Origin: a virus
Taxonomy: Duplodnaviria; Heunggongvirae; Uroviricota; Caudoviricetes
IMG/VR virus record: IMGVR_UViG_2585427735_000011
DNA: 12,870 nucleotides
Strand: one strand, 5' to 3'
Position 1 is the first letter of the stretch. The number at the start of each line of letters is the position of its first letter. The notes under the pieces are model-generated. The model did not search any database, was not told where the DNA came from, and saw only the letters and a list, made by a program, of their open reading frames with translations. Shown here in pieces: positions 1-12,344 of this stretch. Both the position numbers and the translations under genes were made by a program.

Positions 1-15
1 GGTAATGACTCCAAC

Positions 16-519
16 TTATTGATAGTGTTTTATGTTCAGATAATGCCCGATGACTTTGTCATGCAGCTCCACCGATTTTGAGAACGACAGCGACTTCCGT
101 CCCAGCCGTGCCAGGTGCTGCCTCAGATTCAGGTTATGCCGCTCAATTCGCTGCGTATATCGCTTGCTGATTACGTGCAGCTTTCCCTTCAGGCGGGATT
201 CATACAGCGGCCAGCCATCCGTCATCCATATCACCACGTCAAAGGGTGACAGCAGGCTCATAAGACGCCCCAGCGTCGCCATAGTGCGTTCACCGAATAC
301 GTGCGCAACAACCGTCTTCCGGAGCCTGTCATACGCGTAAAACAGCCAGCGCTGGCGCGATTTAGCCCCGACGTAGCCCCACTGTTCGTCCATTTCCGCG
401 CAGACGATGACGTCACTGCCCGGCTGTATGCGCGAGGTTACCGACTGCGGCCTGAGTTTTTTAAATGGCGGAAAATCGTGTTGAGGCCAACGCCCATAAT
501 GCGGGCGGTTGCCCGGCAT
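16..519 (-). CDS. insB: IS1 transposase InsB reading frame (expressed as InsAB' fusion via -1 frameshift)
   Basis: 167-aa [28 protein letters not shown]...HYLNIKHYQ matches IS1 InsB as I recall it; overlaps insA in the -1 frame. Confidence 0.9.
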
Positions 520-713
520 CCAACGCCATTCATGGCCATATCAATGATTTTCTGGTGCGTACCGGGTTGAGAAGCGGTGTAAGTGAACTGCAGTTGCCAT
601 GTTTTACGGCAGTGAGAGCAGAGATAGCGCTGATGTCCGGCGGTGCTTTTGCCGTTACGCACCACCCCGTCAGTAGCTGAACAGGAGGGACAGCTGATAG
701 AAACAGAAGCCAC
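438..713 (-). CDS. insA: IS1 InsA (transposition inhibitor, N-terminal part of the transposase)
   Basis: 91-aa [42 protein letters not shown]... with zinc-finger Cys pairs, typical IS1 InsA. Confidence 0.9.
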
Positions 714-763
714 TGGAGCACCTCAAAAACACCATCATACACTAAATCAGTAAGTTGGCAGCA

Positions 764-949
764 TCACCGCCTTGCTTCATTAAAGTAGTCGTCGTGGTTA
801 GTGTTTTCTTTTTTTTCTATTTCTTTAATCACCAAGTCATGAGCTAGGTGTCTGTCATGAGCCAGATATACTTTTGAAAAACAACCCTGTTCTTCTAGAT
901 CACGAATCCATTCGAATGCTACATCAGCTCTTTTGTATGGAGTCAGCAT
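764..949 (-). pseudogene. N-terminal fragment of a protein-kinase-like gene, truncated by the IS1 insertion
   Basis: Minus-strand ORF reads MLTPYKRADVAFEWIRDLEEQGCFSKVYLAHDRHLAHDLVIKEI..., resembling a Ser/Thr kinase glycine loop (G-x-F-x-K-V) followed about 20 residues later by a VxIK lysine motif. Native sequence stops at the IS1 boundary (768/769); the final two residues and the stop codon are IS1-derived. The rest of the gene would lie beyond IS1, outside the window. Confidence 0.45.
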
Positions 950-1404
950 CCCCTTACCTCCGCAGATAGTGCAGCCAAAACAGCTTCATTTGTTTCAGTT
1001 GTAAAACCAGAATTATCGATTCCATTTATATTACGGTGTGACTTCAATATTTCTTTATACTCGATCTCTGTTAGGTTCAATGATGACTTCATACCAGATT
1101 TTCTAATGGTGTAATATCTTCTTACATCACTGCTTGAAAATGCTTCTTGAATAACAGCTTCTATATAAAGGCGGTCAATGCTAAGATTATCAGAGTTTGA
1201 TTCAGTAACGCGTATAGCAGCTAATTCAACATTATATAAATTAAGAATGTCGAGGATGTTATTTCGCACATACTTTAATTTTTCTGGTGTGTCTAAGGTC
1301 GAAGGTATTTTAATAACATCAACACATTTGAGTGCAGACTCATCAGTGCAATATACAACAAAAGATGTAACTTTGGGCGCCGCCCTAACACCTAGTATTC
1401 TCAT
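943..1404 (-). CDS. Hypothetical protein (153 aa), AT-rich, immediately downstream of the repressor gene
   Basis: Single long ORF in an AT-rich block; its stop overlaps the start of the kinase-like ORF by 7 nt, suggesting translational coupling. No family recognised. Confidence 0.55.
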   Translation of the reverse strand: MRILGVRAAPKVTSFVVYCTDESALKCVDVIKIPSTLDTPEKLKYVRNNILDILNLYNVELAAIRVTESNSDNLSIDRLYIEAVIQEAFSSSDVRRYYTIRKSGMKSSLNLTEIEYKEILKSHRNINGIDNSGFTTETNEAVLAALSAEVRGC

Positions 1405-1484
1405 TTTTTATATCCCATTTTAGAATCAGGCTGCGTTTCTGCAGCCTCTCTCATCACCCAAATGTCTAATCAGGCTATTATTGA

Positions 1485-2177
1485 TTATCCATGTTTCCTG
1501 TATGTTTGCGGCATGCTCCCAATAACTTTCCCGAAGATAAACACCCGGTTCATCTCGTCTTTCTCGATTGGGTCCCACGGTGAGTAGCTCTTGTTATCAG
1601 AGATAACCAGCAGTTTATCCTTCATCATTTGCAGGCGCTTAACATGGGCTGTGTCGTCATACAGAAACGCATAGATACCATCACCGTCGAAAGATTTAAC
1701 AGTGATATCAACGAACAGAAGATCACCTGGTTCGATCGTTCCTGACATGCTGTCACCGCGTACGTTAATGATGCGGATATTTTCTGCCTTCCTGCCATCG
1801 AACATGTGACGAGCATCGTCAAACGAGTACTCAACCGAGCGTAGAACTTCTACAAACTCACGGTTGATGACTCCCGGCCCGGCACTCACTTCTATATCAA
1901 GAACGTCAATCTTGAAGTATTTGGGATGGTTGGCAGCAGGCTTCCCTGATTGTTGACCGTCATTTCTCATCGGGCCTATGCCTGATGAGAGCCACTCTGT
2001 TCGAACACCCAATGCATTAGCTATTTCAACAATTTTTGTTGAGCCGCGTGCGTTGCCGCTTGTCAGTCTCCAGATTGTGGGTTGAGCTACGCCAGACGCC
2101 TTTGCAAGAGCGCCTTGAGACATTCCAGATTGTTCCATCGCTAGGTTTAAGCGATCAGCAAGAGTTTCTTTTTTCAT
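1485..2177 (-). CDS. cI: Phage CI-type repressor (N-terminal HTH, C-terminal S24 LexA-like autopeptidase domain)
   Basis: HTH-like segment QGALAKASGVAQPTIWRLTSG; S24 motifs GDSM (in NVRGDSMSGTIEPGDLLFVD) and HVKRL lysine. Start taken at ATG 2177 (MKKETLADRL...); the track's 1485..2213 ORF uses an upstream TTG. No Shine-Dalgarno precedes the ATG, consistent with a leaderless PRM-type transcript. Confidence 0.85.
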   Translation of the reverse strand: MKKETLADRLNLAMEQSGMSQGALAKASGVAQPTIWRLTSGNARGSTKIVEIANALGVRTEWLSSGIGPMRNDGQQSGKPAANHPKYFKIDVLDIEVSAGPGVINREFVEVLRSVEYSFDDARHMFDGRKAENIRIINVRGDSMSGTIEPGDLLFVDITVKSFDGDGIYAFLYDDTAHVKRLQMMKDKLLVISDNKSYSPWDPIEKDEMNRVFIFGKVIGSMPQTYRKHG

Positions 2178-2287
2178 AAGTTTTAATTTATACGCTTGCG
2201 TATTGATGGTCAAAACACGTTTTGCTATTGATTGGGTTAATACGCATTGCTATTATCCATTCATTGTAATACCAATAGGAATTGATA
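2178..2287. promoter_or_regulatory. Divergent cI/cro promoter-operator region (PRM/PR-like) with candidate operator inverted repeats
   Basis: 110-bp gap between divergent repressor and cro starts. Inverted repeats TACGCttGCGTA (2191-2202) and AAAACacGTTTT (2212-2223), plus a further TACGCATTGC element at about 2241-2250. Exact operator and promoter hexamers not resolved. Confidence 0.5.
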
Positions 2288-2515
2288 ATGACAAATCAAA
2301 CCATTCAACTCGCAATCAGTATTACAGGTAGTCAAAAACGACTGGCAGATCTATGCGGTGTAGCCCAGCCCACTGTTTGGCGTTGGCTACACGGTGGCGG
2401 AATTGATGCCCGCTATGTAATGAAAATTGTCTCAGCCACTGGTGGAAAGATTAAACCAGCAGATATTCGTCCCGACCTTGCACCATTGTTTAACGCGAGT
2501 AATTCTGCCGCCTAA
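2288..2515 (+). CDS. Cro-like / YdaS-family HTH DNA-binding protein
   Basis: 75 aa, MTNQTIQLAISITGSQKRLADLCGVAQPTVWRWLHGG with a classic HTH; divergent from the repressor; AGGA RBS 7 nt upstream of ATG 2288. Confidence 0.75.
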   Translation: MTNQTIQLAISITGSQKRLADLCGVAQPTVWRWLHGGGIDARYVMKIVSATGGKIKPADIRPDLAPLFNASNSAA

Positions 2516-2545
2516 ACTGCGGCGTTAACTGATAAGGCAATGATT

Positions 2546-3085
2546 ATGCAACCACTTACATACCAACAGACTAGCGGATTTAGCCCGACTGCGGTGATAA
2601 ATCGTTCTCAAATAAAACAGGTGCCAGGCCACGAAAAAATCCGTGATGCCGTTCGCGCCTGGTCGGCTGCAGATAATCAGGATGTTGTTGCCGCACTCAT
2701 TGTGAATGAGTATCGGGAGCAGGGCGGCGGCACCATCGATTTCCCTGATGATGTCAGCCGTGCACGCCAGAAGCTGTTCCGCTTCCTCGATAACAAATTC
2801 GATTCTGAAAAATACCGAAATAACGTGCGTGAACTGACCCCGGCAATTCTGGCGGTACTACCGCTGGAATATCGCGGCCACCTGGTTGAGCAGGATAGCT
2901 TCATGGCTCCGCTGGCTGAAATGGAAAAGGAACTCTGTGAGGCAAAGCAGGCGGTCATTCTCAACGCACCACGCCACCAGAAACTGAAGGAGATGAGTGA
3001 AGGCATTGTGTCGATGTTTCGAGTGGACCCGGATCTGGCTGGTCCATTGATGGCGATGGTCACCACCATGCTGGGGGCAATATGA
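2546..3085 (+). CDS. CII-position regulatory protein (possibly Phage_CP76 / YdaT-like family)
   Basis: 179-aa ORF directly after cro and before O, the cII position. Start chosen at ATG 2546 (better RBS spacing than 2540). Family assignment is from memory and uncertain. Confidence 0.55.
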   Translation: MQPLTYQQTSGFSPTAVINRSQIKQVPGHEKIRDAVRAWSAADNQDVVAALIVNEYREQGGGTIDFPDDVSRARQKLFRFLDNKFDSEKYRNNVRELTPAILAVLPLEYRGHLVEQDSFMAPLAEMEKELCEAKQAVILNAPRHQKLKEMSEGIVSMFRVDPDLAGPLMAMVTTMLGAI

Positions 3086-3171
3086 CAGGTTCAAAAATGG
3101 CGAAAGTCGGTCTGCGGGAACAGAACCGACTTTCAGGTGCAAATCGTAACACACTCATTGCGGGAGGAATT

Positions 3172-5165: not shown

Positions 5166-5498
5166 ATGAACCCTTATATTTATCTTGGTGGTGCAATACT
5201 TGCAGAGGTCATTGGTACAACCTTAATGAAGTTTTCAGAAGGTTTTACACGGTTATGGCCATCTGTTGGTACAATTATTTGTTATTGTGCATCATTCTGG
5301 TTATTAGCTCAGACGCTGGCTTATATTCCTACAGGGATTGCTTATGCTATCTGGTCAGGAGTCGGTATTGTCCTGATTAGCTTACTGTCATGGGGACTTT
5401 TCGGCCAACGGCTGGACCTGCCAGCCATTATAGGCATGATGTTGATTTGTGCCGGTGTGTTGGTTATTAATTTATTGTCACGAAGCACACCACATTAA
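5166..5498 (+). CDS. emrE: Small multidrug resistance (SMR) efflux transporter EmrE
   Basis: 110 aa from MNPYIYLGGAILAEVIGTTLMKFSEGFTRLWPSVGTIICYCASFWLLAQTLAYIPTGIAYAIWSGVGIVLISLLSWG...NLLSRSTPH, essentially the E. coli EmrE sequence as I recall it; four predicted TM helices. The track ORF starts at an upstream in-frame ATG (5112); 5166 has the RBS. Confidence 0.9.
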   Translation: MNPYIYLGGAILAEVIGTTLMKFSEGFTRLWPSVGTIICYCASFWLLAQTLAYIPTGIAYAIWSGVGIVLISLLSWGLFGQRLDLPAIIGMMLICAGVLVINLLSRSTPH

Positions 5499-5754: not shown

Positions 5755-7281
5755 ATGAAAAAAGCCATAGCATATATGCGATTTTCATCACCAGGTCAGA
5801 TGTCTGGCGACTCATTAAACCGACAGAGAAGACTTATTGCTGAATGGTTAAAGGTAAATAGTGATTATTATCTTGATACCATAACATATGAAGATTTAGG
5901 ATTAAGTGCATTCAAAGGAAAGCATGCACAATCAGGAGCTTTTTCGGAATTTTTAGATGCTATAGAGCATGGTTATATATTGCCAGGAACTACATTGTTA
6001 GTTGAAAGTCTGGACAGACTTTCAAGAGAAAAAGTCGGTGAAGCGATTGAACGTCTGAAATTGATTTTGAATCACGGTATTGATGTTATAACTCTTTGCG
6101 ACAATACAGTCTATAATATTGACTCTTTGAATGAGCCATATTCATTAATAAAAGCCATACTTATAGCACAAAGGGCAAATGAAGAAAGCGAGATAAAGTC
6201 AAGTCGGGTTAAATTATCATGGAAGAAAAAACGGCAGGATGCACTGGAATCAGGTACGATTATGACGGCGTCTTGTCCGAGATGGCTCTCCTTAGATGAC
6301 AAAAGAACGGCTTTTGTTCCAGACCCCGACAGGGTGAAAACTATTGAGCTAATTTTTAAACTCAGGATGGAAAGGCGCTCATTGAATGCAATAGCCAAGT
6401 ATTTAAATGATCATGCTGTAAAGAATTTCTCAGGAAAAGAAAGTGCATGGGGACCTTCTGTAATTGAAAAATTATTAGCGAATAAAGCTCTGATAGGTAT
6501 ATGCGTACCTTCATATCGTGCAAGAGGTAAAGGAATAAGTGAAATCGCTGGCTATTATCCCAGAGTCATATCAGATGATTTGTTTTACGCTGTACAGGAA
6601 ATTCGGTTGGCACCTTTTGGTATTAGCAATAGTAGCAAAAATCCTATGTTGATAAATCTACTTCGAACAGTTATGAAGTGCGAGGCTTGTGGTAATACCA
6701 TGATTGTTCATGCGGTATCTGGAAGTTTGCATGGCTATTATGTTTGTCCGATGAGAAGACTGCATCGATGTGACAGGCCATCAATAAAGAGAGATTTGGT
6801 TGATTATAATATCATTAATGAGTTGCTTTTTAATTGTAGTAAAATCCAACCAGTTGAAAACAAGAAAGATGCTAATGAAACTTTAGAGTTGAAAATTATT
6901 GAGCTCCAGATGAAAATTAATAATTTAATTGCTGCATTATCTGTTGCGCCTGAAGTTACCGCTATAGCAGAAAAAATCAGAGTATTAGATAAGGAATTAC
7001 GAAGGGCTTCTGTATCATTAAAAACTTTGAAGAGTAAAGCGGTGAGTTCACTTGGTGATTTTCATGCTATTGACTTAACCAGTAAAAATGGGCGAGAGCT
7101 ATGTCGTACACTTGCCTATAAAACATTCGAAAAAATCATAATCAATACAGATAATAAAACCTGTGATATCTATTTTATGAATGGCATTGTTTTTAAACAC
7201 TATCCTTTAATGAAAACAATATCCGCCCAGCAGGCGATAAGTACTCTCAAATATATGGTTGATGGTGAGGTTTATTTTTGA
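5755..7281 (+). CDS. ybcK: Large serine recombinase (DLP12 YbcK-like)
   Basis: 508 aa; N-terminal resolvase catalytic motif AYMRFSSPGQ (Y-x-R-x-S-x-x-x-Q); Cys-rich zinc-ribbon-like segment CEACGNT...YYVCPMRRLHRCD; C-terminal coiled-coil-like region. AGGTG RBS before ATG 5755. AT-rich relative to the neighbouring replication genes. Confidence 0.85.
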   Translation: MKKAIAYMRFSSPGQMSGDSLNRQRRLIAEWLKVNSDYYLDTITYEDLGLSAFKGKHAQSGAFSEFLDAIEHGYILPGTTLLVESLDRLSREKVGEAIERLKLILNHGIDVITLCDNTVYNIDSLNEPYSLIKAILIAQRANEESEIKSSRVKLSWKKKRQDALESGTIMTASCPRWLSLDDKRTAFVPDPDRVKTIELIFKLRMERRSLNAIAKYLNDHAVKNFSGKESAWGPSVIEKLLANKALIGICVPSYRARGKGISEIAGYYPRVISDDLFYAVQEIRLAPFGISNSSKNPMLINLLRTVMKCEACGNTMIVHAVSGSLHGYYVCPMRRLHRCDRPSIKRDLVDYNIINELLFNCSKIQPVENKKDANETLELKIIELQMKINNLIAALSVAPEVTAIAEKIRVLDKELRRASVSLKTLKSKAVSSLGDFHAIDLTSKNGRELCRTLAYKTFEKIIINTDNKTCDIYFMNGIVFKHYPLMKTISAQQAISTLKYMVDGEVYF

Positions 7282-10783: not shown

Positions 10784-11866
10784 TTAGAACTGGTAAACCA
10801 TACCTACAGCAACGATATCATCGGTAGCAACGCCAGATGCTTTCGTGAAATCGCTCTTATCAATCAGGTTGATTTTGTAATCAACAAAAGTGGACATATT
10901 TTTGTTGAAGTAATAGGTTGCACCTACATCAATATATTCAACCAGGTCCTGATCACCCCACGCACCCAAGTCTTTTCCTTTAGATTGCAGGTAAGCAACG
11001 GACGGACGCAGACCGAAGTCGAACTGATATTGTGCAACTACTTCGAAGTTTTGTGCTTTGTTGGCAATATGGTTATTACCAAAAACAGTCATGTTCTGGG
11101 TTTCAGAATAGGTGGTAGCCAGATAGATGTTGTTCGCATCATATTTCAGACCAGCTGCCCATACTTCAGCATTTTGACCAGATGCATTCAGGCTGTTGTT
11201 ACCGTAGATAACCTGATTATTAGTGCGGTCAGATTTAGCATAGGTTGCACCTACACCGAATCCTTCATACTCATAAGTAGTGGAGAAACCGAAACCATCA
11301 CCATTAGCTTCAGTTACGTCAGTGCGGTCATTTTTACCCTGATACTGAGCAGCAAAGTTCAGACCATCAACCAGACCAAAGAAGTCATTGTTACGATAAG
11401 TTGCAACACCTGTGGTGCGACCAGTCATGAATACATCTGTTTGGGTCCAGGTATCGCCACCGAATTCTGGCAGAACGTCGGTCCATGCACCAATATCGTA
11501 TGCTACACCGTAGTTACGGCCATAATCGATGGAGCCGTAGTCACCGAATTTCAGGCCAGCGAAGGCAAGACGGGTTTTATCTTTGGAGGAACCTTGAGAT
11601 TCAGCGCGGTTGCCTTTGAATTCATATTCCCACTGACCGAAACCAGTCAGTTGATCGTTGATTTGGGTTTCACCTTTGAAGCCAAGACGGGCATAAGTAG
11701 TATCACCATCATCTGCATCATTAGAGGAGAAGTAGTGCTTAGCATTAACTTTCCCGTACAGATCCAGCTTGTTACTGTCTTTATTATAAATTTCAGCTGC
11801 CTGAGCAGACATCGCCATCAGTACTGATGCAGCTACAGCAGAAATTGCCACTGTTAATTTTTTCAT
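10784..11866 (-). CDS. nmpC: Outer-membrane general porin of the OmpC/OmpF family (NmpC / Lc-type), apparently intact
   Basis: 360 aa; signal peptide [29 protein letters not shown]; beta-barrel porin composition (Y/G/N/D-rich repeats); C-terminal aromatic ...VGMVYQF. Reverse-oriented between Q and the holin, as in DLP12. Confidence 0.9.
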
Positions 11867-12344
11867 CGTGAGCCCTTTTTTTTGAACTATTATTAAAAAA
11901 TGATGTCACTGCGCGATAAATATTCATCTAATCAATGTGATTATTTCAAGATGTAAGTTTTAGTTTCTCATTTAATTTGTGAAGTAGATCTCTATTTTTA
12001 TCTGAACTTTTTCTATCGAAACCTATTTATGGCTCTTATTTGAACAAAAATAAACCTATTAGCTAATTTATATTAATGGCTGTTATTTATGGTGGTTCTA
12101 TAATTCGGCAGTTTAATTTAAATCAACTAAAAATAACCTCTGAAATTATTTATTGGTTATTTGTTGAGGTTTTCTTATGTATTTGTGGTGGTGTTTTGAA
12201 CACTCGGTAGCATTCTCATAAATATCATTCAGTGGTTTACGTACGTAAAAAATTGGTTATGCTGTTAAGAGTGGTTACTTCGTCACACAGCTTAAACCCG
12301 CCGTCGAGCTGGTTTTTCCATTTTTTGAGTCTCGATATTAGCTG

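Follow-up and report, generated by a model that had tools for sequence, protein, structure and literature searches.

The window analysed in this study is a stretch of 12,870 nucleotides (nt) from a virus of the class Caudoviricetes (IMG/VR record IMGVR_UViG_2585427735_000011), and the feature under study is a short cassette of two minus-strand open reading frames (ORFs) at 764-1404, downstream of a cI-type repressor gene. Comparison with known phages revealed that the locus is the Stk exclusion cassette of the phage 933W type, present in a decayed form in the rexAB position of a DLP12-like lambdoid prophage, the latter being recognised from its neighbouring gene set; it is an already known element. 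The identity of the cassette and its inactivation by the insertion sequence IS1 are practically certain. For the cassette as a whole, the best explanation (probability of about 0.6) is an abortive-infection kinase module, inactivated here, in which the gene upstream of the kinase encodes a regulatory or sensor partner having the fold of RuvC.

The relationship to 933W was analysed at the DNA and protein level. Positions 769-1467 of the window showed 96.7% DNA identity with stk and L0083 of 933W, and matches of the same level were found in 39 phage records, which are 933W and 38 other Stx-phage records. The 153-amino-acid (aa) protein agrees with L0083 at 151 of 153 residues. An earlier note on this DNA, made from the letters alone, had suggested a link to the Stk kinase of 933W, and the above identities bear this out. 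In the 933W annotation stk is a serine/threonine kinase and L0083 is a hypothetical protein, named in newer versions as 'RuvC-like Holliday junction resolvase'; the genes are arranged in the order pM - cI - L0084 - L0083 - stk - L0081 - tM, where tM is the annotated terminator of the pM transcript. The kinase gene of 933W is transcribed together with cI, and its product aborts infection by HK97 (PMC3564112, PMC3681748). Published descriptions of Stk are of a eukaryote-like tyrosine kinase that is nearly silent as long as the lysogen is uninfected and that aborts HK97 (PMC3564112, PMC3681748, PMC8008677), the abortion of infection being due to Stk-dependent phosphorylation in the infected cell (PMC3681748). 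The cassette of the window shares with that of 933W the same genes, the place behind cI, the orientation and the 7-nt gene overlap, and it differs in having an unrelated repressor, no L0084, a DLP12-like host element and an IS1 cut after codon 60. The features of the cassette are given below.

1-768, minus strand: complete IS1, with insA at 438-713 and insB' at 16-519, both on the minus strand
764-949, minus strand: 5' fragment of stk, an ORF of 61 aa; pseudogene
943-1404, minus strand: intact gene of the 153-aa protein with predicted RuvC fold, orthologue of 933W L0083 (WP_001221207.1)
1405-1484, minus strand: spacer of 80 nt between cI and the cassette, holding a 7-bp hairpin

The AT-rich cassette described in the earlier note was thus found as described, with its two ORFs at 764-949 and 943-1404; the GC content over 751-1500 is 0.34-0.39 compared to 0.46-0.59 for the flanking cI gene and IS1. 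Its assignment to the rexAB position also stands, as the cassette begins 80 nt downstream of a repressor with helix-turn-helix (HTH) and Peptidase_S24 domains on the same strand. For the distal gene the result was mixed. The kinase-like N-lobe motifs are real; the ORF itself is not a gene and represents a 5' fragment cut by IS1. That the system is dead in this window had been overlooked.

The structure of the insertion was determined from both junctions. The terminal inverted repeats of IS1 lie at 1-23 (GGTAATGACTCCAACTTATTGAT) and 746-768 (reverse complement GGTGATGCTGCCAACTTACTGAT) and agree at 18 of 23 positions in direct reading; the repeats are imperfect, and an inverted-repeat finder using a 9-nt seed did not report these ends. 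The matching DNA in RefSeq is annotated as IS1A/IS1B family transposase. On the minus strand, the junction in the window reads ...AATGAAGCAAGGC / GGTGATGCTGCC, with IS1 after the slash. The opposite junction was seen in the IMG/VR contig L088, where IS1 ends as ...GTCATTACC / AAGCAAGGCTTCTCTAT... (the right side also written as AAGCAAGGCTTCTCT) and is followed by Stk residues 58-348. The 9-bp target-site duplication is AAGCAAGGC (minus strand), one copy being at 769-777, and intact stk genes contain a single copy of AAGCAAGGC. The kinase was thus cut after codon 60 by a simple insertion of IS1, with the 9-bp duplication of the target that is usual for this element. Codons 1-60 of Stk occupy 770-949, the interrupted codon 61 has its first base at 769, and the fusion codon 61 together with the stop codon (764-766) is supplied by IS1. 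The exact IS1::stk junction was present in none of 5,426 complete E. coli genomes, a collection that does not include the strain of the window.

The consequence of the insertion for the kinase is evident from its intact relatives. Residues 1-60 of the fragment are identical to WP_000957425.1, the intact 348-aa kinase carried by IS1-free relatives having the same repressor. The distal ORF matched phrog_2361 (serine-threonine kinase) with 9.3e-16, and the Pfam Pkinase model gave 13.5 bits for the 61-aa fragment against a cut-off of 31.7, and 159.7 bits (1.2e-46) for the intact homologue. The fragment keeps the Gly-rich loop EQGCFSKV and the beta-3 lysine motif VIKEI (LVIKEI). The catalytic loop and the DFG motif are absent from the window, being located beyond IS1. 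The window thus holds no catalytic part of the kinase. In this genome the system is inactive, with its upstream gene intact.

Conservation in the Stk family was judged across 28-40 diverse members. The invariant or nearly invariant Hanks residues were G22, K42, E58, H130-F-D132-x-K134-x-x-N137, D150-F-G, P175-E176, D190 and R258; within the DFG motif D150-F151 is invariant and G152 nearly so. The HRD and DFG motifs, by which the earlier note had proposed to judge the kinase assignment, are kept by the intact homologues in the form of HFDIKPNN (a non-RD form of HRD) and SDFG. Two tryptophans, W279 and W293, are invariant and lie in a C-terminal extension of about 70 residues. This extension (about 278-348; model m65784f9ad926) was modelled with confidence by AlphaFold2 as four strands and a helix. 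A word-indexed search yielded 536 kinase clusters at E <= 1e-20, and nearly all of the 120 listed were 337-353 aa long. The top Foldseek matches of the kinase model were alpha chains of AMPK, aligned over more than 370 columns; they hint that the C-terminal extension may resemble a regulatory domain of the KA1 type or of the type of the AMPK C-terminal domain. Decayed forms of the kinase were also encountered: in Pseudoalteromonas sp. ASV78 (L019, 5465-6494) the kinase is split into two ORFs beside an intact RuvC-like gene, and the protein cluster P0089 is a 220-aa truncated Stk having 330 member sequences (kinase sequences only).

The linkage between the kinase and its upstream partner was analysed from both sides. 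In a profile search with the RuvC-like protein, the Stk-like kinase lay directly downstream of the RuvC-like gene in all 39 species-level loci, the two genes being joined by an overlap of 1, 4 or 8 nt or separated by a gap of at most 9 nt; these loci include Gamma-, Beta- and Alphaproteobacteria, Flavobacterium/Sphingobacterium/Pedobacter, Clostridium/Lachnoclostridium and a metagenome-assembled genome of Pyrinomonadaceae. In the reverse search with the kinase profile (37-100% identity), the RuvC-like gene ended at the kinase start in 77 of the 80 IMG/VR loci, the three exceptions being two truncations at contig ends and the IS1 allele of L088. The earlier note had asked whether the two genes always occur together, and this is answered by the above counts. 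The same arrangement was given by independent gene finders for two further distant kinases, one from P. aeruginosa and one from a metagenome, and an intact kinase with a broken partner was not seen among the loci examined. Pairwise identities of partner and kinase were strongly correlated (r = 0.93, 595 pairs), with mean divergences of 44% and 45%. The other neighbours vary and comprise HTH/S24 repressors, type I restriction-modification subunits, AbiEii-like ATPases, helicases, integrases and transposases. As the pair is constant amid changing neighbours, it forms a self-contained mobile module, and its placement behind cI is the lambdoid mode of expressing this module. A family rule of 'always downstream of a repressor' was considered and rejected, because the neighbours outside the enteric bacteria are heterogeneous.

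The 153-aa partner, for which the earlier note recognised no family, turned out to have a RuvC fold with a degenerate active site. Its similarity in sequence is low: the Pfam RuvC model gave 13.6 bits (E 0.062, residues 3-65) against a cut-off of 22.2. The protein matched phrog_3875, named 'RuvC-like Holliday junction resolvase', and is called 'RuvC family protein' by RefSeq in one assembly. A search of the PDB sequences with the family profile gave no RuvC and only chance matches at E of about 0.6. The relationship with RuvC was recovered by fold comparison only. The AlphaFold2 model (predicted local distance difference test score, pLDDT, of 90.8) showed a strong fold match to RuvC, and the nuclease-dead RuvC-/RNase H-fold modules TEFM and Cas12k were among the fold matches. 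Two other matches of this protein, to the NCBIfam EMYY lipoprotein (0.0045) and to PADLOC tm_HEPN (0.015), were at chance level and were dropped. An exhaustive profile hidden Markov model (HMM) search of 1.84 billion representatives recovered 449 members, 251 of them at E <= 1e-10; the 150 listed are mostly separate proteins of some 150-165 aa, and a fusion with the kinase would exceed the length of any of them.

The active site was compared by profile alignment, for which the E. coli RuvC sequence was checked against PDB 1HJR and three further RuvC sequences were collected. The hhalign probability for the 153-aa family against RuvC was 37%. The confident stretch covers residues 4-64 and places L4-G5-V6-R7 on L4-G5-I6-D7 and I64 on I65 of RuvC; the ungapped continuation places R65 on E66. 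Beyond residue 64 the confidence of hhalign (global, low-mact) is near zero and the alignment was not used for the C-terminal catalytic positions, which were assigned from alignment continuity and helix position and not by superposition. Conservation at the four catalytic positions, counted in 74 close members and in 126 representatives at 50% identity, was as follows.

Position 7 (RuvC D7): R in 74/74 and 125/126
Position 65 (RuvC E66): R or K in all
Position 137 (RuvC D138/H): variable
Position 140 (RuvC D141): E or D in all aligned sequences (2/126 gapped)

Further invariant residues of the family are R47, E68, R78, E82 and E87. As judged from these alignments, the 153-aa protein is of the RuvC fold and is predicted to lack the RuvC catalytic tetrad (D7, E66, D138, D141). 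With arginines at the positions of the catalytic D7 and E66, the name 'Holliday junction resolvase' is not supported.

A third gene was found to follow the kinase. An ORF of 45-80 aa starts between -12 and +30 nt from the kinase stop in 74 of the 76 loci with enough sequence, and in the two missing loci the small ORF begins slightly earlier; the control rate for other long ORFs of the same loci was 99 of 439. In 933W this third ORF of the module is L0081. Examples of 50-68 aa are listed below.

L001 (933W), 2968-3132, minus strand: third ORF
L002, 3971-4132, minus strand: third ORF
L088, 1435-1602: third ORF
L132, 5048-5206: third ORF

In the window the third gene would fall beyond IS1 and therefore outside the stretch. 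The peptides are about 55 aa long and basic and start with MKK...; two motifs recur in them, [S/T/R]-R around residue 15 and the aromatic G-[Y/F/H]-[F/I/L] close to the C-terminus. An HMM built from the non-enteric small ORFs failed to retrieve L0081 of 933W, so that homology of the third gene across the family is drawn solely from its position and from short motifs. Judged by their position, these small ORFs are all likely to share an ancestor. The conserved Tyr of the third ORF may be mentioned here, as Stk is reported to be a tyrosine kinase. The conservation of the three-gene layout across several bacterial phyla is essentially shown by the above data. Rather than standing alone, Stk of 933W could be the catalytic subunit of an immune module of three genes, in which this Hanks kinase with its own C-terminal domain is joined by a pseudonuclease of RuvC fold and a basic peptide of about 55 aa.

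A mechanism can be proposed for the module. According to the literature, the lysogen transcribes the cassette together with cI, and Stk is silent until it is activated by a superinfecting HK97; the activated kinase then phosphorylates cell proteins and aborts the infection. In the 2011 work of Friedman and co-workers, many cell proteins are reportedly phosphorylated by Stk, and gp41 of HK97 is reported to be its trigger. The RuvC-fold protein, probably no resolvase, may keep the kinase inactive, may couple it to the phage trigger, or may do both, and the trigger could be the Erf-type annealing protein of the phage or the branched DNA made by it. In the HK97 record NC_002167 (L049), erf is located at 24175-24780 between Gp40 and Gp43 (kil = Gp43), which by gene order and numbering would make gene 41 an Erf-like single-strand annealing protein; if gp41 is indeed the trigger of Stk, this trigger is a recombination protein. 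Annealing proteins are established triggers of abortive infection in other systems, among them the sak genes and lactococcal AbiK, and a junction-binding fold devoid of a nuclease centre would suit the detection of recombination proteins or branched DNA. It is probable that the RuvC-fold partner is non-catalytic and works with the kinase. That it specifically senses recombination proteins or intermediates is a tentative suggestion only.

Several observations weigh against the regulatory reading. The acidic residues E68, E82, E87 and E140 are invariant and lie near the former active site, where a non-canonical nuclease centre is possible, and the match of R65 with E66 sits at the edge of the confident profile alignment. 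The identification of the trigger draws on gene numbering. Defence by a kinase does not require a partner in general, since the related kinases PD-T4-6 and Stk2 are listed as systems of one gene. In the accessible papers Stk itself is treated as a single-gene function, and no experiment or structure showing L0083 to bind or regulate Stk was found there.

The alternatives to this explanation concern mainly the role of the RuvC-fold protein. It may act only as an inhibitor of a toxic kinase, in the manner of an antitoxin, the sensing of the phage being left to the C-terminal domain of the kinase or to the third protein. The order of the genes agrees with this, since the inhibitor gene would be upstream and translationally coupled; so does the near inactivity of Stk in uninfected lysogens (PMC3681748). 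The pattern of decay points in the same direction: in the window, through IS1, and in L019, where the ORF is split, the kinase is lost and the partner intact, no locus has the reverse, and the truncated 220-aa Stk cluster counts 330 sequences (kinase sequences only). The conserved C-terminal domain with W279 and W293 and the third ORF are candidates for the other roles. However, a mere inhibitor would have no need of the strict patch of R7, R65, E68 and E140 across phyla, which suggests a specific ligand such as nucleic acid, and the decayed loci are too few for statistics. This alternative overlaps the best explanation instead of excluding it, and the sensor and antitoxin variants are hard to separate by sequence data; taken by itself, a pure antitoxin role is possible and rather unlikely.

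An opposite relation of the two proteins was also considered, in which phosphorylation by Stk switches on a non-canonical nuclease or DNA-binding activity of the RuvC-fold protein, thereby killing the cell or blocking the phage DNA. The four invariant acidic residues (E68, E82, E87, E140) and the tight co-evolution of both proteins are in accordance with such an effector. The protein lacks, though, the beta-1 Asp that RNase H-fold nucleases universally have, the small protein comes first, an order more typical of a regulator followed by its enzyme, and in the published picture it is the Stk-dependent phosphorylation that aborts infection (PMC3681748); an effector role is considered improbable. 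More improbable still is a true resolvase function of the 153-aa protein on Holliday junctions, in phage recombination or DNA maturation, its place beside the kinase being merely incidental. The phrog_3875 name, the RefSeq 'RuvC family protein' of one assembly and the strong fold match speak for a resolvase. Against it, the Pfam RuvC score of 13.6 bits is below the cut-off of 22.2 and no RuvC appeared in the PDB profile search; of about 200 sequences only one does not have Arg in place of the first catalytic Asp, and the E66 position holds R or K throughout; and the gene belongs to an operon expressed in the lysogen, lies apart from the recombination and nin genes, and is tied to the kinase also in chromosomal contexts without nearby phage genes. 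The regulatory or sensor role of the partner is retained as the best explanation.

The layout upstream of the cassette has the following features.

1485-2177, minus strand: cI-type repressor of 230 aa, HTH + Peptidase_S24 (RefSeq WP_000712397.1 at these coordinates)
2178-2287, no strand: putative region of divergent control between cI and cro, its function assigned by analogy to 933W as annotated
2288-2515, plus strand: cro-like HTH gene (RefSeq WP_000184665.1 at these coordinates)

The repressor matched Peptidase_S24 (1.5e-18) and HTH_3 (1.5e-6) of Pfam, and its identity with the cI of 933W was 26% across 65 residues only; its immunity type differs from that of 933W. With a repressor unrelated to 933W cI, the cassette has moved between immunity types and retained its position behind cI. 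The homology with 933W starts at about window position 1467, inside the spacer (the 933W match ends at query base 699). The region 2178-2287 is presumed, by analogy, to hold PRM, PR and the operators; promoter-like consensus sites at 2213->2185 (minus) and 2228-2256 (plus) are pattern matches only, and such sites in the scan of 700-2400 were no more numerous than in shuffled sequence. Between cI and the cassette a terminator scan called no terminator-like site. The spacer contains a hairpin at 1427-1446 (minus), which has 7 bp, is GC-rich and lacks a U-tract, with a fold z-score of -2.65 and a place in the centroid structure. One compensatory change (T-A to C-G) and one wobble change preserve it in 933W, and it is absent upstream of the Proteus and Klebsiella homologues. 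The hairpin could be an attenuator or an element of RNA processing or stability within the cI operon. Within the cassette, the kinase ATG (949-947) lies 4 nt ahead of the upstream TGA (945-943), giving the 7-nt overlap of the two ORFs, and a GGAGG is present about 8 nt 5' of this ATG. This layout permits translational coupling; the coupling stated by the earlier note is compatible with it to that extent.

The gene set around the cassette is that of the host prophage. The cro-like gene is followed on the plus strand by a YdaT-like gene and then by the O and P replication genes, and further right emrE, ybcK, ybcN, quuD and a porin gene constitute the DLP12-type prophage gene set. A DUF3024 gene, L0084 (113 aa), stands between cI and the RuvC-like gene in 933W (L001, 4704-5045) and in Proteus penneri (L010, 4555-4893) and is missing from the window and from the IS1-free relatives. 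The protein with a YdaT-toxin domain is encoded at 2540-3085 (plus), downstream of cro, where lambda has cII, and Klebsiella prophages with the cassette have YdaS/YdaT genes at the equivalent position. The DLP12-typical cargo includes emrE (multidrug efflux) at 5166-5498 (plus) and ybcK (serine recombinase family) at 5755-7281 (plus). The porin gene at 10784-11866 (minus) is ompC-like by its RefSeq annotation and adjoins a very AT-rich stretch (GC 0.26-0.31) at 11850-12300.

Among the known systems, the slot of the cassette is that of RexA/RexB of lambda. RexB is a membrane ion channel, and the Stk system acts by protein phosphorylation. Both cassettes occupy a position in which the lysogen transcribes them along with cI from the maintenance promoter, and both serve to exclude other phages by abortive infection (PMC3564112), whereas no sequence or domain relation exists between them, and neither ORF had a Pfam or PHROG match to RexA or RexB. 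Bacterial RuvC (PF02075; PDB 4LD0, 6LW3, 1HJR) has the fold of the 153-aa protein, with sequence similarity below the family thresholds. Compared to the resolvase, the 153-aa protein has R in place of D7, R/K in place of E66 and no conservation at the D138/H position, only the D141 position remaining acidic (E140); the closest analogues in kind are the RuvC-/RNase H-fold pseudonucleases TEFM and Cas12k. The window itself is ordinary, since the exclusion gene which it carries in decayed form has been characterised and the prophage is of a common E. coli type. The wider family is of more interest, as annotation pipelines call the partner a Holliday junction resolvase, a name its active-site residues do not support, and defence-system catalogues score the kinase alone.

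Only loosely related are the single-gene defence systems PD-T4-6 of E. coli and Stk2 of Staphylococcus, which share with Stk the Hanks-type kinase as the killing enzyme. The intact Stk homologue matched the PD-T4-6 models (1.5e-36) and mad6 (8e-49) of PADLOC over the kinase domain only (residues 20-276), and no PADLOC model matched the 153-aa partner beyond chance level. PD-T4-6 and Stk2 are listed as one gene, while the Stk family has its own C-terminal domain and two conserved flanking genes. In a 2026 review Stk2 is the only kinase defence listed; the searchable, partial literature gave no description of the RuvC-fold partner or of the three-gene unit, and the three-gene layout appears undescribed in the literature searched. 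HipBA and the tripartite HipBST are likewise operons of small proteins with a growth-arresting protein kinase, and the tripartite layout is reminiscent of the present one. The kinases differ (HipA against Hanks-type Stk, no HipA model being among the Pfam matches of the intact kinase), as do the partner folds, so that the analogy is functional only. The three-gene linkage offers a testable hypothesis for a question open since 2011, namely how Stk is silenced and then triggered by HK97, and if it is true, a pseudonuclease-plus-kinase design joins the known kinds of abortive-infection sensors.

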